Part shown: positions 2 through 13,783 of the stretch, in pieces
How positions within the stretch are numbered: the stretch's first letter is position 1
Layout of the letters: every line of letters starts with the position of its first letter
Source of the DNA: a virus
Lineage: Duplodnaviria > Caudoviricetes
Virus record (IMG/VR): IMGVR_UViG_3300032272_000064
Coordinates: 1-26,079 of that record
Strand: one strand, 5' to 3'
Length of the DNA stretch: 26,079 nt
Position numbers and translations under genes: made by a program
The notes under the pieces: generated by a model
Database searches by the model: none
Told to the model about the DNA's origin: nothing
The model's input: the letters and a program-made list of their open reading frames with translations, nothing else

Positions 2-829
2 GTATCTGTTGCAATCATACTATGCCTATATTGGATTAGTAGCCAGTGGACTAGAGCAGTGGCAACAGTGATTATTGGCCTACCAACATTATTGACTAGC
101 TACTATTATTATGCCAATACCAGCCTAGGAGATCGAGCCAGTGCCTTGTTAATGGCCTTAGCAATGTTATTGGTTATCCGTTCAACAGGTAATTTAATCT
201 CAACCAATGCCATCTATTGGATGACTACCATCAACCTAGGGGCAATCATCCTATCCAAAGCCTTATTTATAGACTGGGGAAATATAATCATAGACGAACA
301 CTTAGAAATCATCATTATTATTTTCTTTGCCAAGGGACTAATACTTGAACACAAACATCTAGCGGAAATAGAAAAGAGATTTACCATCGAGCAAGAACTA
401 CGCCAAGAAGCTGAATCTCATGCTCAAACAGAGAAACAAAAACGTCAAGTCGAAACAGAGAGACGCAGAGACGTAGAAGCACGATTAAAATCAGAACAAG
501 AAGCAACCAAGTTTAGAGAAGCCAACCGCAAGGCAAAAAATTTATTACAGAGCCACCGAGCAACTTTTGAACATGGAAAAATAATCAGTAAAAAACCAAA
601 GGAAAAAGAAAAGGGTTTATGGCTAACAATACTAGCCATAGACCCTGACACAAAAGAAGAAGATAATTTACCAATTGAAATACCTTATGATTTGCTAAAC
701 AGCAATGGAACTATTGCCTTAGACAAAGGAAACAGTATTAAACTAACTGGTAGACTGAAATCATTCAGACACCCGAAAGCTGGAAATCAAATCGTTATTA
801 GAGTTACAAAAATTGAAAACTTGAGCTAG
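2..829 (+). CDS. 5'-truncated multi-pass membrane protein with coiled coil and C-terminal OB-fold/SSB-like domain
   Basis: Frame is open from position 2 (VSVAIILCLYW...); several hydrophobic segments; E/R/Q-rich helix (AEIEKRFTIEQELRQEAE...); C-terminus ALDKGNSIKLTGRLKSF...IVIRVTKIENL resembles the OB-fold KG-x-V-x-V-x-GRL pattern. Confidence 0.6.
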   Translation, partial: VSVAIILCLYWISSQWTRAVATVIIGLPTLLTSYYYYANTSLGDRASALLMALAMLLVIRSTGNLISTNAIYWMTTINLGAIILSKALFIDWGNIIIDEHLEIIIIIFFAKGLILEHKHLAEIEKRFTIEQELRQEAESHAQTEKQKRQVETERRRDVEARLKSEQEATKFREANRKAKNLLQSHRATFEHGKIISKKPKEKEKGLWLTILAIDPDTKEEDNLPIEIPYDLLNSNGTIALDKGNSIKLTGRLKSFRHPKAGNQIVIRVTKIENLS

Positions 830-1050
830 GAACCCCATAAACCGAGTGTCTCAGGTTCTGGTATGGCCATAGCACTCGTTAATTTAGGGTTACTAGCAAA
901 AAAATCACGTTCAACGTCAGTTAATTGTGCTTCAAAAAGTGTTTGTTCAACATCACAAAAAAACTTTTCCCTAGTTTTCGGATTAATCATTAGTTGACCT
1001 ATAAATTTCTGGACATTATATGAATTTTCAAAAAAAATTGTTTTTAACAT
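826..1050 (-). CDS. Small protein resembling NHLP-clan (Os1348-like) leader peptides
   Basis: SD GGGAGG 7 nt upstream; extended -10 promoter; VQKFIGQLMINPKTREKFFCDVEQTLFEAQLTDVERDFF fits the pattern IG+x(3)DPxFRxxFxxDxxxxLxxxxLTxxE; stop overlaps upstream gene stop (CTAG). Confidence 0.55.
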   Translation of the reverse strand: MLKTIFFENSYNVQKFIGQLMINPKTREKFFCDVEQTLFEAQLTDVERDFFASNPKLTSAMAIPEPETLGLWGS

Positions 1051-1065
1051 TTAGCAACCTCCCAA

Positions 1066-1106
1066 CTTTATGCTATAATTATTATAGCATAAAGCTTGCT
1101 TTATGC
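1066..1106. promoter_or_regulatory. Palindromic bidirectional extended -10 promoter/operator
   Basis: CTTTATGCTATAAT-T-ATTATAGCATAAAG (1066-1094): each arm carries TGnTATAAT; overlapping second IR GCATAAAGC-TT-GCTTTATGC (1087-1106). Confidence 0.7.
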
Positions 1107-1190
1107 CATAAGTTAATAGCCTTATTTGAAGGTCAAATAAGGAGTAGTAGACTACGCCAAATTATATTTGGCCCTACACGTTTAAAACAG

Positions 1191-1272
1191 ACGCACCCTA
1201 CTACAACCAGCATCGCCAGCCCTCATTTTGGGACTGGTTACTTTCCGTTGGCTGTAGGAAGTGCGTTTTTTT
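1191..1272. other. Long interrupted stem-loop followed by T-run in the rep leader
   Basis: ACGCAC/GTGCGT, CTACAACCAGC/GTTGGCTGTAG and CCAGCCC/GGGACTGG nested arms, then T7. Confidence 0.5.
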
Positions 1273-1294
1273 ACAAATTTACCACTTTAAAATT

Positions 1295-1355
1295 AAAAAA
1301 CCTTCCCACCGCCAAGCAAGAAGGTTTTTTACGCAGTTGGAAACTGCCGCATTCA
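1295..1355 (-). ncRNA. Putative ~60-nt antisense sRNA (two hairpins, second is a terminator)
   Basis: Lies directly downstream of a consensus promoter; minus strand GCAG-TTTCCAA-CTGC, then AACCTTCTTGC-TTGGCG-GTGGGAAGGTT followed by Ts. Confidence 0.5.
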
Positions 1356-1361
1356 TTAGGA

Positions 1362-1390
1362 ATTATACCACCAAACCCCTTGGTTGTCAA
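1362..1390 (-). promoter_or_regulatory. Sigma70-type promoter, perfect consensus
   Basis: Minus strand TTGACA-17 bp-TATAAT. Confidence 0.8.
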
Positions 1391-1443
1391 TCCCCTATGT
1401 AAAAAACAGTTTCCCCTGCTACAAATTTAATATAAAACCCAAA

Positions 1444-1530
1444 GTTTAAATTTAAACGGTGGATAACGCTTATCCTACATTCAGCACCGCTAGGCGTAAT
1501 TTGGCATAATGCCATCGTTTAAATTTAAAC
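1444..1530. promoter_or_regulatory. Pair of palindromic operator-like sites GTTTAAATTTAAAC upstream of rep
   Basis: 14-bp palindromes at 1444-1457 and 1517-1530; related to the 22-bp array unit at 3682-3790. Confidence 0.6.
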
Positions 1531-1563
1531 CCCACTTATTTTAATGTAGAAGGAGAATTATAA

Positions 1564-2826
1564 ATGAGTACCTATAACAATACACCTGTTTTTGAAGATG
1601 AAGACGATAATGACATCACCCTCGTAATTCGCGACAATCGCGGTGGCAACTGGTTTTGGATCCACAACATTATCATAGACCATTACCAACCAATCATCGG
1701 CACAATGGGATTCAACATATACTCAATATACGCTCGCCAAGCCAATAATAAAACTGGCAAAGCCAAATTACCTAGAAACATAATTTTAGACCATCTAGGC
1801 ATAGGCACATCCTCCCTAACAGAATACAACAATATATTAGAATGGTGCGGGCTGATTTATATTGTTCGTGGGTATAAAAGGATAAACTCTATTTATTTAT
1901 TACAGCCTCGGCCAATCACAGGGGAATGGTTGGAATTAATTCGCCAAAGGGTTGTTGAAGGAACTGCTCCAAAAGGCAACAGGAAAAGCTATTCAAGATG
2001 TAGAAAAACCATCTTAAAACGGCTGAAAACTTGGCGGAGTCTTGAAGACAGAATCACTGAACATCAAATGTATATAGAACAAAAAATTCAAACAATCAAA
2101 GCTAAAGACTCAGAAAAACAACTAACATTTTTAAAGGACGAAGATGGAGACGATTCGGCAGGGGGACTCCAGGATTCGGCAGGGGGACTCCAGGATTCGG
2201 CAGGGGGACTCCAGGATTCGGCAGGGGGACTCTTTAAACAAGACTCAACAACAAGACTCAAACAAGACTCAAACAAGACTCAACAACAAGAGGTTGTTGC
2301 TGTTTTATTTTCTGAAATTGGAATCATCGAACCAGTTTTTTCAGAATTAATAAATTCTAATCCAATTGATGTAGAAGGTTGGCTAATCTACACCGAAAAC
2401 AATCTTAAAATCGAAGACCCCGCCGGCTTCGTCATCACCAAATTAAGAAATAATGAAAAGCCACCCCACCCCCAAAACGGAAAATTCGGCCACAGGACTC
2501 TAGACCAAATAGAAGCCCAAGCCCACGCCAATGAAGCAGAAGCAAAAGCCCAAGCCGCACAGCTCCGCACCGCAGGAGTCAGCCAGGAAGATGTAGCAAA
2601 TTGGAAGGCCACGCTCCAAACCCTCCAAACCCAAACAACCAACGCTCAATTTAGTTGGCTAAAAAACAGCCAACCAATTCGCCGCAATAACCAAACCTTA
2701 ATAATAGGCCTCAAAAGTCAGCAGGCGGTGGAATGGACTGAAGCCCGTTTAATTCCTGTTATAGAGCGAGCCGCCTCAAACCACAACCTAACCAACCTAA
2801 AATTTGAGGTAGAGCAAGATGCTTAA
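1564..2826 (+). CDS. Phage replication initiator (N-terminal wHTH, internal iterons, C-terminal DnaA domain I-like region)
   Basis: SD AAGGAG; replisome-organizer-like N-terminus (NWFWIHN...IYSIYARQAN...LEWCGLIYI); DSAGGLQ repeats; C-terminal WKATLQTLQ...FSWLKNSQPI...TLIIG...VEWTEARLIPVIERA resembles DnaA_N. Confidence 0.8.
   Translation: MSTYNNTPVFEDEDDNDITLVIRDNRGGNWFWIHNIIIDHYQPIIGTMGFNIYSIYARQANNKTGKAKLPRNIILDHLGIGTSSLTEYNNILEWCGLIYIVRGYKRINSIYLLQPRPITGEWLELIRQRVVEGTAPKGNRKSYSRCRKTILKRLKTWRSLEDRITEHQMYIEQKIQTIKAKDSEKQLTFLKDEDGDDSAGGLQDSAGGLQDSAGGLQDSAGGLFKQDSTTRLKQDSNKTQQQEVVAVLFSEIGIIEPVFSELINSNPIDVEGWLIYTENNLKIEDPAGFVITKLRNNEKPPHPQNGKFGHRTLDQIEAQAHANEAEAKAQAAQLRTAGVSQEDVANWKATLQTLQTQTTNAQFSWLKNSQPIRRNNQTLIIGLKSQQAVEWTEARLIPVIERAASNHNLTNLKFEVEQDA
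2152..2299 (+). repeat. Iteron array / probable phage origin inside rep
   Basis: GATTCGGCAGGGGGACTCCAG x3 plus a partial copy (2152-2232), AACAAGACTCA x4 (2237-2282), IR CAACAAC/GTTGTTG (2281-2299). Confidence 0.85.
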
Positions 2827-3292
2827 TGAAAACGCCAGAGAATTAAAGAAAATAGCTGAAGAACTTGGGGCAGATGTAATTGAAGGCCGTTTTTTCCCAT
2901 CAAAAGTGGGAAGACCAAAATTAGGAAACTATGACCTATCCAAACACCTCGACCACTATCAAGGTAAATCCCTCATTATAATAGTGGCTCCCCTCGATGA
3001 AGACGAAAACCACACCTGTGGTATATGTGGTTTTGCGATGGATGAGGTTCGGGAGTGCCCCCGGTGTAAACTCCAAGCCTTAGAATTAGCCGCAGAACTA
3101 GAGGGCAAAGTGCCAGGCATAGCCCCCAGGCCGCAATTTGACGATGCCACCATTACAGCCAGTCAAATATCCGCCGCTTTGGAGACTATTGGCAGGATTA
3201 TGGTCAGTGATGGCACTGAGGAAACCGCAGGCCACAATGCTAGTTGGTATTTAGATGCGGCCCAAATGATAGATTATTGGTGGTCAAAATGA
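2819..3292 (+). CDS. Hypothetical protein with zinc ribbon
   Basis: Overlaps rep stop; CGIC...CPRC. Confidence 0.75.
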   Translation: MLNENARELKKIAEELGADVIEGRFFPSKVGRPKLGNYDLSKHLDHYQGKSLIIIVAPLDEDENHTCGICGFAMDEVRECPRCKLQALELAAELEGKVPGIAPRPQFDDATITASQISAALETIGRIMVSDGTEETAGHNASWYLDAAQMIDYWWSK

Positions 3293-3320
3293 ATCAACTT
3301 AACAATAACCGCACCTTAAC

Positions 3321-3370
3321 AAATAGTCCCCAAAAAGAGACTACCAAAAACAACCAAAAGGGGGTACAAT
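3321..3370 (+). promoter_or_regulatory. Putative activator box plus -10 (copy 1)
   Basis: AAATAGTCCCCAAAAAGAGACTACCAA; TACAAT starts 21 nt after the ACTA half-site. Confidence 0.6.
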
Positions 3371-3374
3371 AATT

Positions 3375-3593
3375 ATGAAGAAGCAATACCCCCCAGCACC
3401 GGGGCGAAAAAAACTCACCTTGGCCCAAATCACCCGTTTGGATAACCTTGCCTACAGGTTATCCAAACTTACTGAAAAAACAGGCCGAGAAGCAGAAATT
3501 ATCATTAAAATCATAAAAGGCAATCCCCGCATACTTGGACGCTACATTGAAGAAACATTTGACCCAGAGGAATGTCAATCAGAACTAATCTAA
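3375..3593 (+). CDS. Small hypothetical protein, loosely YezD/DUF2292-like; possibly leaderless
   Basis: 72 aa; helix followed by EIIIKIIKGNPRIL beta pattern; ATG 4 nt after the -10. Confidence 0.55.
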   Translation: MKKQYPPAPGRKKLTLAQITRLDNLAYRLSKLTEKTGREAEIIIKIIKGNPRILGRYIEETFDPEECQSELI

Positions 3594-3681: not shown

Positions 3682-3790
3682 CCATCGTTTAATATTAAAC
3701 GATGGAAGGTTTAATTCTAAACGATGGAAGGTTTAATTCTAAACGATGGAAGGTTTAATATTAAACGATGGAAGGTTTAGAATTAAACGA
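3682..3790. repeat. Non-coding 22-bp tandem array with five near-palindromic GTTTA-N4-TAAAC cores
   Basis: AAACGA recurs at 3697, 3719, 3741, 3763 and 3785; first unit lies in a perfect 24-bp palindrome CCATCGTTTAATATTAAACGATGG. Confidence 0.9.
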
Positions 3791-3892: not shown

Positions 3893-4147
3893 GTGGAGCG
3901 TAGTGGAACTTTGGAAAAAACCAACCTTAACAACGCCATCAAACCAAAGCTAACCCCCCGCCAACGCGAGGCATTATATTTTGCGGCCCTTGGTCTAACC
4001 AACAAAGGCATAGCCCGTAAAATGACCATCACCCCCGATACTGTCAAAAAACACCTCACCGATGCCCGTACCACCCTCAACGCCAACAACCGCACCCACG
4101 CCGTTTTTATCGCCACCACAACTGGCCTAATATCAGCCCCCAATTAG
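3893..4147 (+). CDS. Stand-alone LuxR/GerE-family HTH transcriptional regulator
   Basis: SD AAGGAG before GTG; LTPRQREALYFAALGLTNKGIARKMTITPDTVKKHL...NRTHAV is a textbook LuxR HTH. Confidence 0.9.
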   Translation: MERSGTLEKTNLNNAIKPKLTPRQREALYFAALGLTNKGIARKMTITPDTVKKHLTDARTTLNANNRTHAVFIATTTGLISAPN

Positions 4148-4401
4148 CCATATCCACCAACCAAACCACAGGCCAGCCCTACCTCCACACCCTACTCAAC
4201 ACCACCCCCGCCCCACCATCCACCAGCCGCAGTTCCCCCCGCCCCAAACCAAAAAACAAAAAACCCACCAACTGGCTTAAAATCGCCCTCATAATTGGAG
4301 CCATCCTAACCGCCCTTATTCTTTGCCTCTGTGCTTGCTCCATCGTCCTAGCCCTCACCAACCCCACCACCATCCCCCAAATCCTACCCCCCATCCAGTA
4401 A
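4141..4401 (+). other. Start-less reading frame (Pro-rich linker plus transmembrane helix) in the -1 frame of the LuxR gene
   Basis: QLAISTNQ...RPKPKNKKPTNWLKIALIIGAILTALILCLCACSIVLALTNPTTIPQILPPIQ*; no ATG/GTG/TTG in frame. Confidence 0.5.
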
Positions 4402-4403
4402 AT

Positions 4404-4445
4404 AAAAAAAGCGTTTCCCAAAGTTTTCCTGGAAAACACTTTTTA
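4404..4445 (-). terminator. Intrinsic terminator of the leftward cassette (possibly bidirectional)
   Basis: Minus strand AGTGTTTTCCA/TGGGAAACGCT stem followed by T-run; between convergent genes. Confidence 0.7.
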
Positions 4446-4450
4446 TTTTA

Positions 4451-4798
4451 TTAACTGTGCTTTTTATTCCGACCCCAAGTGAGGTACAGATTATGCACAG
4501 GTATATGGTTCAAGTTCCCATATTCAGAAATATCAGGATTATTCACCTTCTCAATTTCTTCCACCAACTCACTACCCAAAAGTGTGTCTAAAAAATCATT
4601 TTGTTTATCACTTGACCGAACCTTTCTATATTTATTAAATGCTTCAATTCCACCAATTTCAAAAGCTTCTTGTAATTTTTGTCCTACTACTGATTCATCC
4701 AAAAACTTTAAATATTTATGTCCTAATGTTTGTTCTTTAAATTTATCTTCTTTCATAATTAAATCCTTTCTAATTAAATTTTTGTAATAAGGCCGCAA
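4451..4798 (-). CDS. Hypothetical protein (true start probably the internal MKEDK)
   Basis: AT-rich ORF, last of three co-oriented genes, ends at the terminator. Confidence 0.6.
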   Translation of the reverse strand: MRPYYKNLIRKDLIMKEDKFKEQTLGHKYLKFLDESVVGQKLQEAFEIGGIEAFNKYRKVRSSDKQNDFLDTLLGSELVEEIEKVNNPDISEYGNLNHIPVHNLYLTWGRNKKHS

Positions 4799-4813
4799 AT
4801 AGGCATTTACGGC

Positions 4814-5458
4814 TTAGTTTTTTGCTTTCATCCAATCTACAAAATCTCCTTGCTTAAAAACCCAATCCCGACCTACTTTTTTAGCTCCCTCTATCTCCCC
4901 TTCCCTACAAGCTAATGTAATAGATGAATTTGGCACATCAAACAAAAACGAGGCTTCGCTAGAGCTTATAGTCAATAAATCCATAATTCCCCGTATTTGG
5001 TCGGGGCTTATAGTAGCATCCGCTTGCCCTTTTTGCCGTAGTCGTATCAGAATATTCTCAGGCGTTGGTTTTTTCATTGCCTCACGCTTTTTGGGAGCAA
5101 CTTCGTGAGCCACATAATTCGCCCATGTGCGTCTAGCATGGTCGATATCAGCTATTAAAAGTGCCTCTGGTGTTTGTGAGGCTTTATACTCTGTGCAGCT
5201 TTCTACCCACGCTTCCCACATTTTATCCAAATCACTATTTCTAATCATAGCTTCAACATCGTTTATATCAAGCGAAAGCCACACCCCCGGTTTTTGTTCT
5301 TTAGTTGCCAACAATGATTGCAAAAATAATGCATACTGTTTTTTATTTGGCAACCCTGCTGGAGCGGCCACTATTCTATATTCGCTTCCTAAGCAGTCAG
5401 TCAAAAGTTTGTTTAATTGTTCAGCCGCAGATGGTGCAGTAACAGGTCCTAAAGCCAT
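4814..5458 (-). CDS. Protein with C-terminal excisionase/MerR-like HTH
   Basis: SD GGGAGG; ISSSEASFLFDVPNSSITLACREGEIEGAKKVGRDWVF. Confidence 0.75.
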   Translation of the reverse strand: MALGPVTAPSAAEQLNKLLTDCLGSEYRIVAAPAGLPNKKQYALFLQSLLATKEQKPGVWLSLDINDVEAMIRNSDLDKMWEAWVESCTEYKASQTPEALLIADIDHARRTWANYVAHEVAPKKREAMKKPTPENILIRLRQKGQADATISPDQIRGIMDLLTISSSEASFLFDVPNSSITLACREGEIEGAKKVGRDWVFKQGDFVDWMKAKN

Positions 5459-5460
5459 TT

Positions 5461-5733
5461 TTATGCCTCCCTTTGGTGTACAAAATAATATTTTTTATTA
5501 TAGCTACTGCCTCTAGTAGTACTACCTATTTGGCGGTTATTTTTCTCAAATTCAGTTCGATTCCTTCGCTTAGGCCATTGCCAATCTGAAGTTTCCTTAA
5601 CTTCAACATCTTCTAAGGTTAAGCCAGTTTCGTTCAAAAAAATTTCTATCTCCAAAAGGCGGTTGGGGCCTTGCTTGGCATTTAAGCCAGTTTCATTTTC
5701 GTAAAAATCTGCAATTGTATTTAAATCAGCCAT
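5461..5733 (-). CDS. Hypothetical protein
   Basis: SD AAGGAG; first gene after a strong promoter. Confidence 0.65.
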   Translation of the reverse strand: MADLNTIADFYENETGLNAKQGPNRLLEIEIFLNETGLTLEDVEVKETSDWQWPKRRNRTEFEKNNRQIGSTTRGSSYNKKYYFVHQREA

Positions 5734-5972: not shown

Positions 5973-6518
5973 ATGAAAAACGACGCAAAAACCAATATAA
6001 TCATTTTCCTTATAATTATCACATTAATCAACATCACCAATACCCAACCCCCAACCCAACGGGCCAACCAATTCATTAGCCCCATCAATACCCCCATGGC
6101 CGCTGATACCCTCACCACCAGCCCCCTTGCCGCTCCATTAGAACAAGGCAAAAATACCCCTTTAGTAAATCCCCCTAAAAGCCCCCCACCCAAACCACCC
6201 AAACCACCCAAACTAAACAAGCTCCCTAAAGTCAAACTCGACCGCCCTCGACTTGGAAGCACCACCATCAGCGGCCGTGGCCCCGTTGGCCTACCTATAA
6301 AAATATACGAGGTCGCCAATACCGCAGACCTGCTTTGCACCACCACCATCAATAGAAGCGGTCAATTCACCTGCACCACCACCCGCCCCCTCCGCCGCAC
6401 CGAGCGCGTAGCCGTCACCGCCCCCAATGCCCCCTACACCCGCCACCAAATGCGCCAAATAAGGCTTGTAGATATTCCCACCTACGGCTACATCCTAGCC
6501 GAAAGGAAAGTCCGCTAA
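5973..6518 (+). CDS. Exported/membrane-anchored Pro-rich protein with Ig-like domain
   Basis: SD AGGAG; N-terminal hydrophobic segment; PPKPPKPPK linker; TTISGRGPVGLPIKIY...TTTINRSGQFT resembles bacterial Ig-like folds. Confidence 0.6.
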   Translation: MKNDAKTNIIIFLIIITLINITNTQPPTQRANQFISPINTPMAADTLTTSPLAAPLEQGKNTPLVNPPKSPPPKPPKPPKLNKLPKVKLDRPRLGSTTISGRGPVGLPIKIYEVANTADLLCTTTINRSGQFTCTTTRPLRRTERVAVTAPNAPYTRHQMRQIRLVDIPTYGYILAERKVR

Positions 6519-7072
6519 TGGCTAAAAGGAAAAAACTCCCACGCTGGCTAAAACAAGAGGAACGGGACAAACTACTAAAATTAAAAATGTCCCCCCGCAA
6601 CCGAGCCATAATAACCACATTTCTCTATGGCGGTATGCGCTGCAACGAGCTACGGATGCTAGACATCAAAGATATAGACCCCCAAGAAATGTCCATCGAC
6701 ATCCGCTTCGCCAAGCGAGGCAAACAACGCCTAATCCCCCTCCATCCAGAAGTAGGAGCGGCCACAGAACACTACCTCGAACAAAGTAGCCGTTCCTTCC
6801 AGAACACGGGGGCATTATTTCTCAGCAACCGCAACCAACGCATTAGCCTACGCCGCCTGCGGTCGCTAATCAACCAGCTAGGCAAAAAAGCAAACCTAAA
6901 AAAAGGAATCCACCCCCACGCCCTCCGCCACACCTTTGCCGTCTCATTAGTTGAAAAAAACATCAGCATAGAAGCCGTCCGAGATTTACTAGGCCATAGC
7001 TCCATCAGCGTCACCGACATCTACCTACATTGCACCCCCAACCGCCTCAAAGATGCAATCAACCAACTATAA
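6518..7072 (+). CDS. Tyrosine recombinase, catalytic domain only (184 aa)
   Basis: GMR...KRGKQR...HPHALRHTFA...LLGH...DIY catalytic R-K-H-R-H-Y set. Confidence 0.92.
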   Translation: MAKRKKLPRWLKQEERDKLLKLKMSPRNRAIITTFLYGGMRCNELRMLDIKDIDPQEMSIDIRFAKRGKQRLIPLHPEVGAATEHYLEQSSRSFQNTGALFLSNRNQRISLRRLRSLINQLGKKANLKKGIHPHALRHTFAVSLVEKNISIEAVRDLLGHSSISVTDIYLHCTPNRLKDAINQL

Positions 7073-7081
7073 AAAACAGTA

Positions 7082-7102
7082 AAACAAGTTGCTAACTTGT
7101 TT
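7082..7102. other. Inverted repeat (terminator-like or binding site)
   Basis: AAACAAGTT-GCT-AACTTGTTT followed by ATTTTT. Confidence 0.4.
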
Positions 7103-7122
7103 ATTTTTAATAAGAGGAACAA

Positions 7123-7503
7123 ATGCCAACCACAGTAAAACAACTCAAACAACAAGCTGAAGAACTGCTCAAATTAGCTCCAATGGTAGAGCGATACAAC
7201 CAACTCCAAACCCAAATTAAAGCAGGCTTAATTGAACTATCTTGGATGGAACTAAACACCCCCGCCGGGTCTATATCCATTTCCACCACCACCGAACTTA
7301 TCATCCCCCTTGACGTAGCCCAAAAAGCACTAGGCAGAGAACGGGCTAAACAAATCAGCATCACCCGTACCCAAACCACCGTCTCAACCAAAATAACCAA
7401 AGCTTTTGTTGATGAAGACCAAATCACCCCCGATGAATGGAACGAAATTAAACGACAAAGCGAAACTAAAACCATTACCCGCCTACACATCAGGCCAAAA
7501 TAA
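7123..7503 (+). CDS. Hypothetical phage protein
   Basis: SD GAGGA; 126-aa ORF in operon. Confidence 0.7.
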   Translation: MPTTVKQLKQQAEELLKLAPMVERYNQLQTQIKAGLIELSWMELNTPAGSISISTTTELIIPLDVAQKALGRERAKQISITRTQTTVSTKITKAFVDEDQITPDEWNEIKRQSETKTITRLHIRPK

Positions 7504-7513
7504 AGGAGATATT

Positions 7514-7912
7514 ATGCTACCAATTATACTGACACAAATGCCACAACCAACACAACAATTCATTATCGACTTCGCCAACGGCCCCACCCTCCCCACCACC
7601 GCCGAAGAAGCCCTAGCCCTAATAATGCCCCTAGCCCTAGCTTGGTTGGCTGGTTTAATTGGCAACGCCCTCACCGATTTTATTAAGGATTTGCCTTGGC
7701 CCGACATAGATGGAAAAAAACTTATCTCAGGCCCCATCGCTGACCTTGTGGCAGCCCTTACCAGCATTATAGGTGGGGTTGCATTATCCTATTTAGGCCC
7801 TTGGGCTGAATACCTCGATGAGCAAGGCATTTGGCTTATCATTGCTGCCGCTTGGCCTATTGCCAAAACGTGGTTTGAGGCTAAGAAAGGCCGCAAATGG
7901 TGGCCTCTATAA
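7514..7912 (+). CDS. Holin-like membrane protein (about 3 TM)
   Basis: SD AAGGAG supports ATG 7514 rather than 7406; hydrophobic helices; basic C-terminus. Confidence 0.55.
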   Translation: MLPIILTQMPQPTQQFIIDFANGPTLPTTAEEALALIMPLALAWLAGLIGNALTDFIKDLPWPDIDGKKLISGPIADLVAALTSIIGGVALSYLGPWAEYLDEQGIWLIIAAAWPIAKTWFEAKKGRKWWPL

Positions 7913-8337
7913 TGCCAATGCTAAAGCCCATCGTCCATCAATTAGCCACAGCCCTAGGAGCAATTAGCTTAGTTGCCATCACCATCATCGACCTAAAAAC
8001 AGACACTATCAATGTCCTACAATTAATCAATGCTCAAAATGTTTTAAGTGTATTGGTAGTAGTGGTTGTGGTAGGTGGTGGTAAATGGTTTGTTAAGGAT
8101 GTGTGGCCTTGGATTTGTGATTTTTTAGAGGCCAAGCAGAAATCAGAGCATGAGATTAAATTGAAAGAGCTTGCTGTATCAGCCGAAGCAGAGATGCGGT
8201 GGCAAGCCGTAGTCGAGCGAATGACACACAGCTATGCCACCTTCCAAAACACACTAGGCAAAGTAGAGGCCACCAACCATCAAATACTAGAATGGATGTC
8301 TGAGCTAAGGAAAGCCGATGCCCAAACGACCGCCTAG
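7897..8337 (+). CDS. Membrane protein with C-terminal coiled coil (holin/antiholin-like)
   Basis: Hydrophobic segments including VLSVLVVVVVVGGG, then amphipathic helix. Confidence 0.5.
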   Translation: MVASIMPMLKPIVHQLATALGAISLVAITIIDLKTDTINVLQLINAQNVLSVLVVVVVVGGGKWFVKDVWPWICDFLEAKQKSEHEIKLKELAVSAEAEMRWQAVVERMTHSYATFQNTLGKVEATNHQILEWMSELRKADAQTTA

Positions 8338-8638
8338 AGCTTGCCCCCACCCTGGTTGTCCTAATCTCAACTGCACCACCCACCGCCGCAAGCACCAGGA
8401 CAAACGACCATCAGCGGCCAAGCGCGGCTACAATCACAAGTGGCGTATCATACGCCTCCAGTTCCTCAGAGCCAATCCATTATGTGCCAAATGCAATCAA
8501 GCGGCCAAGGACATCCACCATCTAATCCCCAAAGCCGATGGTGGCACAAACCGATGGAGCAACCTCCAAGCACTCTGCCACAGTTGCCACAGCAAGGAGA
8601 CGCAGAGAGAAAAACGCAGAGGGGGAAGGGGGGGGTAA
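8318..8638 (+). CDS. Packaging-associated HNH endonuclease (HK97 gp74-like)
   Basis: MPKRPPRACPHPGC...RGYNHKW...CAKC...HHLIP...GGTN...NLQALCHSCHSKET; immediately before terS. Confidence 0.93.
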   Translation: MPKRPPRACPHPGCPNLNCTTHRRKHQDKRPSAAKRGYNHKWRIIRLQFLRANPLCAKCNQAAKDIHHLIPKADGGTNRWSNLQALCHSCHSKETQREKRRGGRGG

Positions 8639-8700
8639 ATTTCTAGGGCATCATTTTGCTAGACCGAGCGGGTGACAAAACTTTTACACCCGCGAATTAA
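8620..8700 (+). other. Probable cos/packaging-initiation region
   Basis: G-run GGGGGAAGGGGGGGGT, then GACCG and IR GCGGGTG...CACCCGC between HNH and terS, the usual cos position in HNH-TerS-TerL phages. Confidence 0.55.
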
Positions 8701-8720
8701 ACTAATTTTCATGGAGAATT

Positions 8721-9179
8721 ATGAGAGGCAGAACGCCTAAACCAACCGCCATAAAAAAGCTAGAAAACAATCCAGGCCATCGACCATTGCCTGAAAACGA
8801 GCCACAACCAGAACGCCAAATACCAGCGATGCCGCGAGGCATGGGAGAGGAGTTTAAAAACTTTTGGAAGCAAATAGCCCTACAGCTGGATGAGCTAAAT
8901 GTACTCACAGCTTTAGATGGACCAGCCTTAACCATTATGGCTGTTCATTATGCCAATGCTAAGGTGGCTGCCAAAATGTTAGCAAAAGAGGGATTACAGG
9001 CAGAGGATGAAAATGGAGCTTTACGCAAACATCCACTTAACCAGGTATTACGCGATAACAGTACCGCTTTCCGTCAATGGGCTATCCAGTTTGGTCTCAC
9101 ACCTGCATCCAGAGCCAGACTACAAATCTCCGAGCCAGACCAAATGGACGAATTAGAGGAATTTTTCAACAATGACTAA
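8721..9179 (+). CDS. terS: Terminase small subunit, P27 family
   Basis: MRGRTPKPTAIKKLENNPGHRPL...HP...FGLTPASRARL. Confidence 0.93.
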   Translation: MRGRTPKPTAIKKLENNPGHRPLPENEPQPERQIPAMPRGMGEEFKNFWKQIALQLDELNVLTALDGPALTIMAVHYANAKVAAKMLAKEGLQAEDENGALRKHPLNQVLRDNSTAFRQWAIQFGLTPASRARLQISEPDQMDELEEFFNND

Positions 9180-10110
9180 CTACACCTACATTCAATATAT
9201 AGATGATGTAATAAACAAAAAAATACCCACAGGCCACTTAGTCAAATTAGCCGTGCAACGTCATTTAAACGACCTTGAAACAGGCCATCGGCGAGGATTG
9301 TATTTTGATAAAAAAGCCGCTGAGGATGTAATTGATTTTATCTCTAGCCTTAATCATTACGCAGGTAAATTAGCTGGTCTAAAAATAAAATTAGAACCGT
9401 GGCAACAATTTATTCTAGCCATGTTATTTGGTTGGAAGCGGAGCGATGGTACCCGCCGTTTTCGCACGGGCTACCTTAGTGTAGCTCGTAAAAATGGTAA
9501 AACCACCCTATCACTAGCCATTGCCTTATATTTGATGTTGGTTGATGGGGTACCAAAAGCAGAAAACTATTTTGTATCCTCTACAAAATCAGCATCGGCA
9601 TTTTATTTGTCCAGGGCGATTTACATGGTTAATCGCCCAAAGTTTGTCTGCAAAAATCACACAATTACTGACACTTGGACAAAAAGCCAGCTAATTTCAA
9701 TTGGAGCCAAAACCAGACCAACATCATTGGATGGAATCAATCCGCATGGGGTAGTAATAGATGAATTATATAATCATCAATCAAGCAGATTGTGGGATGT
9801 ATCTAGATTTGCAATGGGTAATAATAAACAAGCATTATTATTTGCCACAACAACCGCAGGTATTTATCGAAATACTTTTTGCAGGTCAATCGATGATTAT
9901 ATTTCAATGATTTTGGATGGTACGGTGGAAGATGATAGTTGTTTTGGTATCATATACACCCTTGATGATAAAGATGATGATTTATACGAAGCCAACTGGA
10001 TTAAATCTAATCCCAACCTTGGTGTTTCTATTCAAAAATTACACTTACGTGATATGAGGAAAGAAAGAGAATTATTTAAAGTCAAGCACTTGAATATATG
10101 GCCTGACTAA
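9172..10110 (+). CDS. Terminase large subunit paralog, ATPase domain only (no nuclease domain)
   Basis: LEPWQQF, Walker A ARKNGKT, Walker B VVIDE, TTTAG; ends KHLNIWPD; colinear with the N-terminal half of the next gene. Confidence 0.85.
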   Translation: MTNYTYIQYIDDVINKKIPTGHLVKLAVQRHLNDLETGHRRGLYFDKKAAEDVIDFISSLNHYAGKLAGLKIKLEPWQQFILAMLFGWKRSDGTRRFRTGYLSVARKNGKTTLSLAIALYLMLVDGVPKAENYFVSSTKSASAFYLSRAIYMVNRPKFVCKNHTITDTWTKSQLISIGAKTRPTSLDGINPHGVVIDELYNHQSSRLWDVSRFAMGNNKQALLFATTTAGIYRNTFCRSIDDYISMILDGTVEDDSCFGIIYTLDDKDDDLYEANWIKSNPNLGVSIQKLHLRDMRKERELFKVKHLNIWPD

Positions 10111-10124
10111 AGGACAATCTCATC

Positions 10125-11801
10125 ATGGCTGTCAATTACACCTACAATCAATATATTGACGGTGTAATGAGCGGCGAAATAACAGCCTGCCACTGGGTAA
10201 AACTAGCGGTAAAACGCCATTTACACGACCTCGATACCGGCCACCAACGAGGGCTACACTTTGATGAAAAGGCAGCCAAGCGGGTTATAAGATTTTTTTC
10301 GTTTCTCAAACATAGCAAGGGGAAGTGGGCCGGGCAGAAAATTGAATTAGAACCGTGGCAACAATTCATCTTAGCCATGGTATTTGGCTGGAAGCGGAGC
10401 GATGGCACCCGCCGTTTCCGAACCGCCTACCTTGAAGTAGCTCGCAAAAACGGTAAGAGTACTCTCGCCGCAGGTATCGGCCTCTATTTAATGTTGGCCG
10501 ATGGTGAAGGCGGGGCAGAAGTTTATTCTGCGGCCACCAAAAAAGACCAGGCTAAAATCGTTTTTGATGAAGCCACCCGCATGGTGAGCCGTTCCCCTAG
10601 CCTTAGCAAAAGGCTAGAAATTTATAAGGAATCCATCACCGACCTAAAAACATTTAGCAAATTTGCCCCACTAGGTCGGGATAGTAAAACGCTAGATGGA
10701 CTTAACCCTCACGGAGCAGTTATTGACGAGCTTCACGCCCACCCCTCTGGGGAAATGTGGGGCGTACTTAAAACGGGGATGGGAGCTAGAGAGCAACCGC
10801 TCATTTTCGCCATCACCACTGCGGGTTTTAATCAGTATGGTTTTTGTCAGGAACAACGGGACTACACTACCCAAATCCTTGAGGATGTACACCAAAATGA
10901 TTCTTATTTTGGCATCATCTACACCCTTGATGATGAAGATGATTATTTTGATGAAGCTAACTGGATTAAAGCCAACCCTAATTTGGGTGTATCAGTCAAA
11001 CTCGATACATTCAGAGAAATGGCCCTTGAGGCCCAAGCCAAGCCCACAGAACGCCACGAATTTATTACCAAAAATCTCAATATCTGGACAAACTCTCAAA
11101 CCAGTTGGATTAATTGGGATAAATGGAAACTCTGTGGCGGTACAGTTGATGAAGATAAACTCATTAACCGCTCATGTTGGGCAGGACTCGACTTGTCCAG
11201 CACCATCGATATTACCGCTTTAGTTTTAGTTTTTCCATCCATAGATGATATTGAACATTACGACATCCTTTGCCGTTTTTGGATGCCAAGCGAAGGGTTA
11301 CGAGAACGCTCAAAAAATGACCAAGTAAATTATTGGGCGTGGAAGGAACAAGGTTTTATTGAGGCAACTGCAGGCGATGTGATTGACTACAAATTCATCT
11401 TAGCCGAGATAAAAGCACTCAATGAAAAATTCAAAGTTGAAGAAATCGCCTACGACCGTTGGGGAGCCAGCAAACTCCAAGCAGATTTACAAGACTCAGG
11501 TTTAACAGTTGTTGAATTTGGACAAGGATTTGCTTCAATGAACCCGGCACTGAGAGAACTTGAACGTATTTACACAGCCGGTTTACTCAACCATGGCAAC
11601 AACCCCGTCCTAAATTGGATGGCTTCAAATGTAACAGTCAAAACCGACCCGGCGGGTAACATCAAACCAGTCAAACCCGACCGGCACAAAAGCAAAATCA
11701 GGATTGATGGAATGGTAGCTTTACCAATGGCTCTAGACAGAGCCGTTAAAAACAAACCAAAAATCAGCGTCTACGAGACACGGGGTATAAGGACATTATG
11801 A
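10125..11801 (+). CDS. terL: Terminase large subunit (full length)
   Basis: VARKNGKS, AVIDELH, ITTAG, nuclease GLDLSSTIDITA, YDRW, RIDGMVA. Confidence 0.97.
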   Translation: MAVNYTYNQYIDGVMSGEITACHWVKLAVKRHLHDLDTGHQRGLHFDEKAAKRVIRFFSFLKHSKGKWAGQKIELEPWQQFILAMVFGWKRSDGTRRFRTAYLEVARKNGKSTLAAGIGLYLMLADGEGGAEVYSAATKKDQAKIVFDEATRMVSRSPSLSKRLEIYKESITDLKTFSKFAPLGRDSKTLDGLNPHGAVIDELHAHPSGEMWGVLKTGMGAREQPLIFAITTAGFNQYGFCQEQRDYTTQILEDVHQNDSYFGIIYTLDDEDDYFDEANWIKANPNLGVSVKLDTFREMALEAQAKPTERHEFITKNLNIWTNSQTSWINWDKWKLCGGTVDEDKLINRSCWAGLDLSSTIDITALVLVFPSIDDIEHYDILCRFWMPSEGLRERSKNDQVNYWAWKEQGFIEATAGDVIDYKFILAEIKALNEKFKVEEIAYDRWGASKLQADLQDSGLTVVEFGQGFASMNPALRELERIYTAGLLNHGNNPVLNWMASNVTVKTDPAGNIKPVKPDRHKSKIRIDGMVALPMALDRAVKNKPKISVYETRGIRTL

Positions 11802-13783
11802 ACCCATTTGCCAGCCTAAAAAGGTGGTGGTCTAATCGTTCCCACCCCTCCGACCCCAACACAGCCCGCCTATTCGGTGGTTTTTCAGAAACCAGCACGG
11901 GCCTACACGTAGACCCCAATGTAGCATTGGCACTACCCGCTGTATTTGGTTGCACAAAAGTTTTATCTGAAACTGAAGCCAGTTTACCGTTGAATTTTTA
12001 CAAACGTAGAGCCAATGGAGGCCGAGATGAAGCTACGAGCCACTCACTCTACCCCATCTTAAAATATAGCCCTAATCCTGAAATGACCTCGATGAAATTC
12101 CGCGAGGCAATGATGATAGCCATGTGTTTGCGCGGCAACTCCTACTCTGAAATTGAATGGACGCATGGGGGGCAGGTCAAAGCACTGTGGCCCCTGCGGG
12201 CTGATAAAATGCAAGTTAAACGGGTTAATCGAGAACTGGTCTATTTATACGATTTGCCCAATGGCCCAATAGCCCAATTACCCGCCTACCGAGTGTTACA
12301 CATCCGTGCTTTCGGAGATGCCCTAATGGGCTTTAACCCCATTGAATGGGGAGCAGAGACAATGGGGCTTGCTTTGGCAGCCGAACAATTCGCTGCTAAA
12401 TTTTTCAAAAATGGAGCAACCCCAAGCCTTATTTTCTCTCACCCCGGCGAATTGGGGGAGGGGGCTTACAACCGTTTGTTAAAATCCATTGAAAGTTTTA
12501 TGTCTGGGCTTACAAACGCTCACCGCATTGCCATTTTAGAGGAAGGGATGGAAGCCAAAGCCGTGGGTATCAGCCCCGAAGCGGCTCAAATTCTCAGTAC
12601 TCGCCATTTTCAAAAACGAGAGATTTGCGGCATGTACCGTGTACCACCACACATGATTGCAGACCTAGAACAAGCTCATTTCAACAATATCGAACACCTA
12701 GGAATGGGATTTATAGCATATTCAATGTTGCCTTGGTTTGTTCGTATTGAGACCCAAATAGCCCATTCCCTATTATCAACGGCAGAACAAAGAGAATACT
12801 TTTGCAAACACAATGTAGATGCAGTTTTACGGGGCGATACCAAAACCCGCTATGAGTCCTATGCCATAGGCCGCAATTGGGGCTGGCTTAGTGCCAATGA
12901 TGTCCGTAAAAAAGAAGATATGAACCCTATTGAGGGCGGGGACACCTACCTAAATCCCCTCAATATGATTCCTGCCACTGAGAGCCGTTTTAATGGCTTA
13001 AACTACCAAAACCGTTTCAATCCCACCCCTAACGGCACTAAAATTGCCTACAACGCCCGCCAAGCGGCTGGCAAACGTCAAAAAATAGCCCAAAACCAGA
13101 TAAATATCTTTGCAGGCCGCTTCAAATCCATCATAAATGATGAAATAAAGGCAGTTCGTGAGGGACTGAACAAGCTCCGCCAGCGTGATAGTAGCGATTT
13201 TTCCTTATGGCTCACCGAATTTTATCAAGGCCAAAATGAGCTTTGGCTTCAAAAAACATTGCCTTTATTCCGAGCCTACGCTCAAACCCTTGGCCTAGCC
13301 ATAGAAAAGGAACTAAACGGAGACTACCCCCTTGATGCAATCGCCCAATTTTTTGAGCAATACGTGGAATCATTCGCCAACCGCCAAGCTAATGAGAGTC
13401 TTCAACAACTCATTGCCTTGCTACGCCAGGCAATCGATGAGGAATCCGACCCCGTTCCCCTCATCGAGGAACGCTTAGATGGGTGGGAGGCCACCCGCTC
13501 AGAACAACTAGCTCATAATGAATCTTTCCGAGCAGGCAACGCCATCGCCAAAGCCTTTTTTATTGCCGCAGGTGTGTCACGCCTTCGTTGGATAGCCACC
13601 GGAGACAATTGCCCCTATTGCTCTAGTTTGGATGGTAAGGTAGTTGGCATCGAGACCAACTTCCTAGCCAAAAACACCGACTTTAACCCTGATGGAGCGG
13701 ACAAACCCATCAACGTCCGCAGTAACATCGGCCACCCGCCGCTCCATAAAAAATGTGATTGTATGATATCAGCTGAGGTATAA
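11798..13783 (+). CDS. HK97-family portal protein fused to a C-terminal minor-head (SPP1 gp7/Mu F-like) domain
   Basis: PNPEMT, RGNSY, FFKNGATPS, ILEEGM, YRVPPHMI, SANDVRKKEDMNPIEGGD; tail W...CPYC..LDG...HPPLHKKCDC. Confidence 0.92.
   Translation: MNPFASLKRWWSNRSHPSDPNTARLFGGFSETSTGLHVDPNVALALPAVFGCTKVLSETEASLPLNFYKRRANGGRDEATSHSLYPILKYSPNPEMTSMKFREAMMIAMCLRGNSYSEIEWTHGGQVKALWPLRADKMQVKRVNRELVYLYDLPNGPIAQLPAYRVLHIRAFGDALMGFNPIEWGAETMGLALAAEQFAAKFFKNGATPSLIFSHPGELGEGAYNRLLKSIESFMSGLTNAHRIAILEEGMEAKAVGISPEAAQILSTRHFQKREICGMYRVPPHMIADLEQAHFNNIEHLGMGFIAYSMLPWFVRIETQIAHSLLSTAEQREYFCKHNVDAVLRGDTKTRYESYAIGRNWGWLSANDVRKKEDMNPIEGGDTYLNPLNMIPATESRFNGLNYQNRFNPTPNGTKIAYNARQAAGKRQKIAQNQINIFAGRFKSIINDEIKAVREGLNKLRQRDSSDFSLWLTEFYQGQNELWLQKTLPLFRAYAQTLGLAIEKELNGDYPLDAIAQFFEQYVESFANRQANESLQQLIALLRQAIDEESDPVPLIEERLDGWEATRSEQLAHNESFRAGNAIAKAFFIAAGVSRLRWIATGDNCPYCSSLDGKVVGIETNFLAKNTDFNPDGADKPINVRSNIGHPPLHKKCDCMISAEV

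Follow-up and report, generated by a model that had tools for sequence, protein, structure and literature searches.

A nuclease-less tandem duplicate of the ATPase half of the large terminase subunit beside terL in a phage with an HK97-like head module

Why would a tailed phage carry a second, shorter terminase gene, without the nuclease, between the genes for its small (terS) and large (terL) terminase subunits? The question is raised by the virus record IMGVR_UViG_3300032272_000064 (the window, 26,079 bases), which encodes an HK97-like head module and siphovirus tail genes according to Pfam and PHROG matches, and in which the gene order is HNH, terS, a 312-aa open reading frame (ORF), terL, portal, protease and major capsid. 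The analysis described here concerns the origin of this 312-aa ORF (the short copy), its retention and its possible role.

A duplicated ATPase half between terS and terL

The analysis confirmed that the 312-aa ORF duplicates, in tandem, the half of the adjacent TerL that comprises the ATPase and the lid. Its product is colinear with TerL residues 1-322 and 55% identical over the shared part, and the ORF overlaps the terS stop codon by 8 nt, as the preliminary description of this DNA had stated; the shared 22-bp block, the LEPWQQF motif, the Walker A, Walker B and TTAG motifs, the end at the ATPase/nuclease hinge and the divergence after Walker A, which the same description had listed, are all present. 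In Pfam searches, the short copy matches TerL_ATPase (PF03354) with 80 bits, against a cut-off of 23.7, and the TerL_nuclease model (PF20441) over positions 2-44 of 286 only, which correspond to the lid. The RNase H-like nuclease domain is absent, with the stop codon at 10108-10110. An AlphaFold2 model reached a mean pLDDT of 96 and a pTM of 0.94, although it is template-like, since most of the 121 TerLs in the underlying alignment are full-length; Atlas models gave a pTM of 0.92 for the short copy and 0.90 for its ortholog P0002 (described below), and a TM-score of 0.94 to the N-terminal half of a full TerL. By these models, an ASCE ATPase domain with its lid is present in the short copy.

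The duplication is old, because synonymous sites are near saturation (pS of 0.77 and pN of 0.28 between the short copy and terL, with 23 of 64 four-fold sites identical, where 27% is expected by chance). For the same reason, the exact 22-bp block (9389-9410 and 10345-10366), which lies within the conserved LEPWQQF motif and is the longest of four shared exact blocks of at least 12 nt, is no sign of recent copying. The GC content of the short copy is 36.7%, compared with 46.7% for the matching part of terL.

Three other accounts of the arrangement were ruled out. Recent gene conversion is incompatible with the near-saturated four-fold sites. A split gene or programmed read-through is excluded by the complete terL with its own start that follows, and this also sets the short copy apart from split or contig-truncated terL halves. 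Mis-assembly, for which a check against reads had been proposed, is contradicted by the fact that the two copies are only 73% identical at the DNA level in their best 300 nt, and by a contig from sequencing run X1 that spans 7000-10508, including the junction between the short copy and terL, with no differences; X1 is possibly the source sample, so this contig is not independent support. Two further runs, X2 and X3, contain short fragments of terL relatives but no long sequence that covers the short copy, and carry no weight either way. No RNA data set was listed among the runs that contain this sequence.

The end of the short copy appears to record how it arose. The segment at 10099-10124 matches the terS 3' end (9145-9170) at 16 of 26 positions without gaps, a tied best score reached at 7 of about 26,000 window positions, and part of this match is the ribosome-binding site (RBS) that is required at both places. 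Read in the frame of the copy, the terS end gives Trp, two residues and a stop, which is the pattern found at the end of the copy. The terS end also starts with a 5-nt word that recurs at the terL hinge (11085-11089), but shared words of this length are common in these sequences and prove nothing alone; the duplication is deduced from the stop register and the spacer match. We propose that a single recombination between the two occurrences of the 5-nt word, one in terS and one at the terL hinge, would have copied about 954 bp, so that the tandem duplication would have placed a truncated copy beside terS, created its stop codon and moved the intact terL downstream together with a copy of the RBS. 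The stop exactly at the hinge would then be explained by the duplication junction, filtered by foldability; the position of this end given in the preliminary description holds, but such an end does not by itself indicate a designed boundary.

A second member of the lineage was found in P0002, the one match that stands out among the best 120 of 2159 (171-546 aa). This protein of 313 aa is 62% (BLAST) or 65% (alignment) identical to the short copy, with the next match at 46%; the two share 42 derived residues and a 100/100 branch, and P0002 ends one residue earlier. It is known from a 1338-bp contig, and its matching end point implies that it ends at a true stop. In the best tree, the pair groups with the window's own TerL and P0309 (99/90), the latter being 89% identical to the window TerL and known from a 5.9-kb contig.

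The arrangement is rare, with one contig among 180 loci and two sequences in all. The back-translated motif of the pair was found in no viral contig, no genome and one metagenome contig, which is the window's own locus (L098). No third member emerged from a profile search with the two-sequence alignment in which the best 8000 candidates were scored, or from a profile search of 1.84 billion representatives, where the next match had 276 bits compared with 671. Two ATPase copies occur in 1 of the 180 loci, again L098 (121 of the loci have at least 1.5 kb upstream, and several repeat one contig), and the synteny of terS, short terL and full terL that had been envisaged among relatives was thus found at no other of these loci. 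In GenBank phages, 2196 places were found in 2192 records, and a second place therefore exists in at most four. TerL halves of 290-420 aa are many in databases; among 51 that were checked, P0002 was the only clear degenerate case and two others failed the Walker B pattern. In one locus (L146, 556-1516), terL is split by a frameshift near residue 60.

Searches for close relatives by clade motif, terS and portal yielded a single sister phage (G001/L025), whose record is estimated to be 60% complete and in which terS is directly followed by one terL, with 78-81% DNA identity over the region. Separately, the working TerL (10125-11801, compared with L025 7992-9692) is 71% identical between the two phages, and the portal, capsid and recombinase are 93%, 87% and 91% identical. 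TerL is usually among the most conserved genes, and its divergence here suggests a module swap or diversifying pressure.

Retention of the frame and loss of catalytic residues

Simulations and codon models support the conclusion that the reading frame of the copy has been kept open by selection. Under neutrality, 7.5-12.2 stop codons are expected and none of 400 runs at each of five divergences was stop-free; the copy has no stops. The dN was 0.33 on the copy branch and 0.04-0.05 on terL, a difference of about 7 times. The copy-branch omega was 0.20 (3 taxa) and 0.36 (6 taxa) with free branch lengths, and 0.12 (3 taxa) and 0.21 (6 taxa) with equal synonymous lengths, with bootstrap 95% ranges of 0.06-0.66 and 0.03-0.35, respectively (205 replicates). 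With equal synonymous lengths, omega = 1 was rejected (p < 1e-12). Equality of the copy and background omegas was rejected as well (p <= 0.0005). These are not the values of a pseudogene (no stops; omega range of 0.06-0.66). The earlier proposal of a selected, nuclease-less paralog is thus upheld by the stop-free simulation, by an omega below 1 (0.12-0.36, where a dN/dS near 1 was the alternative outcome named) and by an ortholog that ends at the same place.

This constraint is strongly regional. Relative to the inferred ancestor, 78 of 108, 37 of 89 and 33 of 47 residues were kept in three regions (p 2e-5), and the short copy and P0002 are identical at 99 of 125 positions in residues 1-125 (79%), 54 of 117 in 126-250 (46%) and 44 of 61 in 251-312 (72%; p 2e-7). 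Residues 126-250 are 39% identical to TerL and 46% to P0002, compared with a mean of 73% within the family, whereas in ordinary TerLs this is the most conserved segment (0.73, against 0.65 and 0.69). Two stretches, of 19 and 15 residues, are invariant within the pair (p 0.0014 for both), and 26 of 35 derived residues in 1-125 are kept between its members, which cannot be explained by gene conversion from terL. Of the residues invariant in the family, 29 of 93 have been changed in the copy; by a count over 98 such positions, the copy keeps 65 and TerL 94.

To assign functions to individual positions, HK97 gp2 (PDB 6z6d), the only convincing solved relative of the window TerL (E 3e-66), was used as reference, with residues mapped through the 6z6d alignment by hand count with an offset of 10, and with residue roles, including the Q92 switch and R254, taken from PMC9410871. 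The short copy and P0002 both keep Q33, K57, K60, D153 and T186, and have a lysine at the pore position R90; the N-terminal part, the P-loop lysines and the lid are kept in both. The window copy also retains R56 and E154, so that its Walker A Arg and two Lys, Walker B Asp-Glu and C-motif Thr are all present, whereas P0002 has Leu and Val at those two positions and an 8-residue gap after the C-motif. At the Q92 switch, all 115 family members have Gln, whereas the copy has Ala and P0002 has Trp. The preliminary claim that the catalytic motifs are kept therefore stands for the Walker motifs of the window copy and fails for P0002 and for the glutamate-switch position of the copy itself.

In HK97, the E154A substitution abolishes both ATPase activity and packaging (PMC9410871), and P0002 is predicted to be inactive because it has lost the equivalent of E154. 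Judging from its residues, the window copy may still hydrolyse ATP and is predicted to be uncoupled from DNA motion. Catalysis is not what selection keeps, because P0002 lacks both the Walker A Arg and the Walker B Glu. What is kept makes up the nucleotide pocket and the N-terminal extension; what is lost are parts with roles in hydrolysis, coupling, cutting and portal contact, a combination that points to a binding protein and not to a motor.

Possible roles of the short protein

Our favoured reading, held tentatively and at somewhat less than even chances, is that the short copy is a nucleotide-binding, mechanically uncoupled and nuclease-free accessory subunit of the TerS/TerL complex, predicted to damp or time DNA cutting and motor assembly. 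The product is predicted to fold and bind Mg-ATP, because the adenine-pocket Gln, the two lysines of Walker A and the Asp of Walker B are present in both proteins. It would not be a motor, since both lack the switch residue, P0002 lacks the catalytic Glu and Arg, and in HK97 it is the missing nuclease domain that adjoins the portal (PMC7617512). In analogy to P22 and lambda, the conserved N-terminal part would still bind TerS, and the short protein would be made together with TerS because the two genes overlap by 8 nt. TerS binds the TerL N-terminus in P22, and does so through its C-terminal region in lambda and P22 (PMC9611059), and T4 motors that contain an inactive subunit still run, though more slowly (PMC8589836). 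Binding to the phage's own complex is ranked first because of the P22 precedent and of this co-expression.

Several results weigh against an accessory subunit. The TerS-binding precedent is drawn from other terminase families, and the lid helix near the oligomer interface is partly deleted in the window copy, which speaks against entry into the ring. The sister phage manages with a single terL, and the copy is therefore dispensable for packaging. Only two members of the lineage are known, and an approximately unbiased (AU) test did not reject a topology in which the full TerLs form one group and the copies fall outside it (p 0.088). With free branch lengths, the rejection of omega = 1 was weak (p 0.016 for 3 taxa and 0.11 for 6 taxa). 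The mean BLOSUM score of the substitutions was -0.45, compared with about -0.63 +/- 0.16 for stop-free neutral change, so that they are only slightly, and not clearly, more conservative than expected under neutrality.

The preliminary description had suggested an immune decoy for Avs receptors. In generic form this idea is weakened: ATPase domains on their own are strong activators of EcAvs2 (5 of 5 tested) and of all three Upx homologs, the ATPase-only T4 homolog vs.8 is toxic with EcAvs2 (both PMC13601566), and Avs2-trypsin is activated by the ATPase domain alone (bioRxiv 10.64898/2026.08.25.746987), which makes a plain decoy doubtful. The idea survives for two-domain sensors such as SeAvs3, which is stated to need both domains where Avs2-trypsin needs the ATPase only (same preprint). 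An ATP-bound ATPase half could occupy such Avs3-type sensors and shield the real TerL, while the contacts read by Avs2 and Upx were selected to change; we regard this as possible, with the odds against it. The Avs2 contacts on the T4 terminase (R162, E198, E256 and the patch 227-247 plus 271-276; same preprint) map to the Walker A Arg, the switch, the Walker B Glu and segments within 126-250, that is, to what has changed in the short pair, although the mapping was made by offset from the Walker motifs and not by structural overlay, and the changed residues are also catalytic, so their loss requires no immune cause. The working TerL is likewise unusually divergent, with its greatest departure from the family in residues 126-312. 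According to a suggestion by Evans et al., terminase-like activators of the vs.8 and Ksap type may serve in anti-defence (PMC13601566); a literature search, with most subscription papers lying outside it, yielded no terminase decoy, and none appeared in passages of PMC11564622 and PMC13581612. In its broadest form, which we also consider doubtful though worth stating, phages would repeatedly make terminase ATPase-half duplicates into ATP-loaded decoys that jam Avs3-type sensors while shedding the Avs2/Upx trigger contacts, and this locus would be a young independent case with its birth junction still visible and one lineage catalytically dead. A weapon against co-infecting related phages, which would poison their motors or titrate their TerS and spare the phage's own, appears improbable: inactive subunits do slow T4 motors (PMC8589836) and derived residues are conserved within the pair, but the gene is part of the late packaging operon, where promoter signals do not exceed the chance level (7 against 7.9 expected), and its product would be made only together with its own TerL, the closest target and the protein most similar to it in the homolog set.

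A less adaptive view, which we hold to be rather unlikely though less so than such a weapon, is that the copy is a slowly decaying remnant, in which selection acts on no more than an open frame and a foldable product, and the protein has no specific task. A proposed reason for such upkeep is that a nonsense change would be polar on the downstream terL, portal and capsid genes and a misfolded product would be costly. The raised dN, the changed family-invariant residues, the lowered GC content, the near-neutral kind of the substitutions, a junction that explains the end point without function and the absence of the copy from the sister phage are all in keeping with decay. Useless tandem duplications can be lost by deletion, however, and this one has persisted through synonymous saturation and 35% divergence of two lineages, in both of which the regional constraint, with its invariant runs, is repeated. 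Finally, the copy might not be an in-place duplicate at all and might instead descend from a foreign terL, whose 5' half would have stayed behind after a module swap. The result of the AU test would allow this, as would the greater difference of terS and terL than of the portal from the sister phage; the best tree, which joins the pair with the window's own TerL and P0309, the spacer before terL, which matches this phage's own terS end, and the fact that no ordinary TerL lacks so many invariant residues make it the least probable of these explanations, at a very low likelihood. An accessory subunit of the terminase complex accordingly stays our provisional choice.

Gene context, known parallels and significance

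The features of the locus are collected in Table 1. PADLOC returned no matches for 17 window proteins. The named neighbours of TerL, at 55-58%, come from Caldilineaceae and Anaerolineaceae, which gives no more than a faint indication of the host.

Table 1. Coordinates of the terminase locus and its features in the window
Feature	Position	Strand	Match
HNH endonuclease, HK97 gp74-like position before terS	8318..8638	+	PF01844, phrog_144
terS, P27-family small terminase	8721..9179	+	PF05119, TIGR01558
terS 3' end carrying the RBS of the short copy; proposed left boundary of the duplicated segment	9145..9171	+	
312-aa nuclease-less TerL paralog: N-terminal helices, ATPase core, lid	9172..10110	+	
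Short copy residues 1-125: conserved N-terminal part, adenine-pocket Gln and P-loop	9172..9546	+	
Walker A region of short copy; R106, K107, K110 = HK97 R56, K57, K60	9484..9504	+	
Short copy residues 126-250: eroded core; glutamate-switch position and Walker B flank changed	9547..9921	+	
Walker B Asp-Glu of short copy (HK97 D153, E154); Glu to Val in P0002	9760..9765	+	
TTAG motif of short copy	9850..9861	+	
Lid region of short copy; 7-9 residue deletion in HK97 R254 helix	9922..10107	+	
Inferred duplication junction: decayed copy of terS 3' end; gives stop codon and terL RBS	10099..10124	+	
Full-length terL, 558 aa, HK97-type	10125..11801	+	PF03354 + PF20441
HK97-family portal with C-terminal extension	11798..13783	+	

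Elsewhere in the window, the portal has 661 aa, with about 270 extra C-terminal residues that end in two Cys-x-x-Cys-like motifs; it matches phrog_2662 along its length, is 93% conserved in L025 and looks like a portal fused to a head-morphogenesis domain. A 184-aa tyrosine recombinase consisting of the catalytic domain only (6518-7072; 91% identical in L025) lies upstream of the lysis and packaging genes. About 100 bp of non-coding DNA (3682-3788) before a LuxR/sigma-type regulator (3893-4147) match both strands of L025 2713-2841, which suggests a conserved inverted or repeated element. Five ORFs of the left arm (59-3593) have no Pfam, PHROG or PADLOC matches beyond a weak DnaA N-terminal match (E 5e-4) at the C-terminus of the product of ORF 1564-2826, possibly a replication initiator. 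On the minus strand, 4179-5733 holds four ORFs, one with a weak HTH_17 match, where L025 has other genes, and this is a variable accessory slot.

The packaging genes resemble those of HK97 in their HNH-terS-terL-portal order and in an RKNGK[ST] Walker A motif with two lysines, and the short copy keeps the equivalents of gp2 Q33, R56, K57, K60, D153, E154 and T186. Unlike gp2, it has no nuclease, carries Ala at the Q92 position and has a deletion in the R254 helix, and P0002 additionally lacks R56 and E154. HK97 is not known to have such a second terminase gene. Rak2-like jumbo phages (CBB_274) and the Sinorhizobium phages phiM12 and phiN3 are reported to have a truncated terminase gene numbered directly before the full one, which was described as unusual but not explained (PMC5259590). 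The present case shares with these a shortened terminase gene that adjoins full terL. Those genes, however, are of the T4 gp17 type (PHA02533, a weak match with E 1e-9) in large myoviruses, whereas the window copy is of the PF03354/phrog_9 type, is 55% identical to its neighbour, nests with its own terL and has a readable junction; it is of separate and younger origin. Another parallel is vs.8 of phage T4, which is homologous to the ATPase of the T4 terminase, consists of that domain only, keeps its Walker motifs and has no assigned role (PMC13601566); both vs.8 and the Ksap proteins (Ksap1/Ksap2) activate Avs2. No paper on an HK97-type terminase duplicate was found in a search that left most subscription papers outside.

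The short copy thus belongs to a known but unexplained kind of gene, and what is new is its separate origin, its different terminase family and a readable birth junction; any function is putative. Reports of a shortened terminase gene next to terL go back to 2017 and offer no explanation; the copies described there are old and highly diverged, and their carriers are jumbo or T4-like phages. If such genes arose repeatedly and independently, this would suggest that terminases are under a general pressure. Were immune sensing the source of that pressure, the products would be anti-defence proteins of a new type, built from the very pattern that is sensed. The question of whether the short protein is a packaging modulator or an immune decoy is directly testable with a few small proteins.
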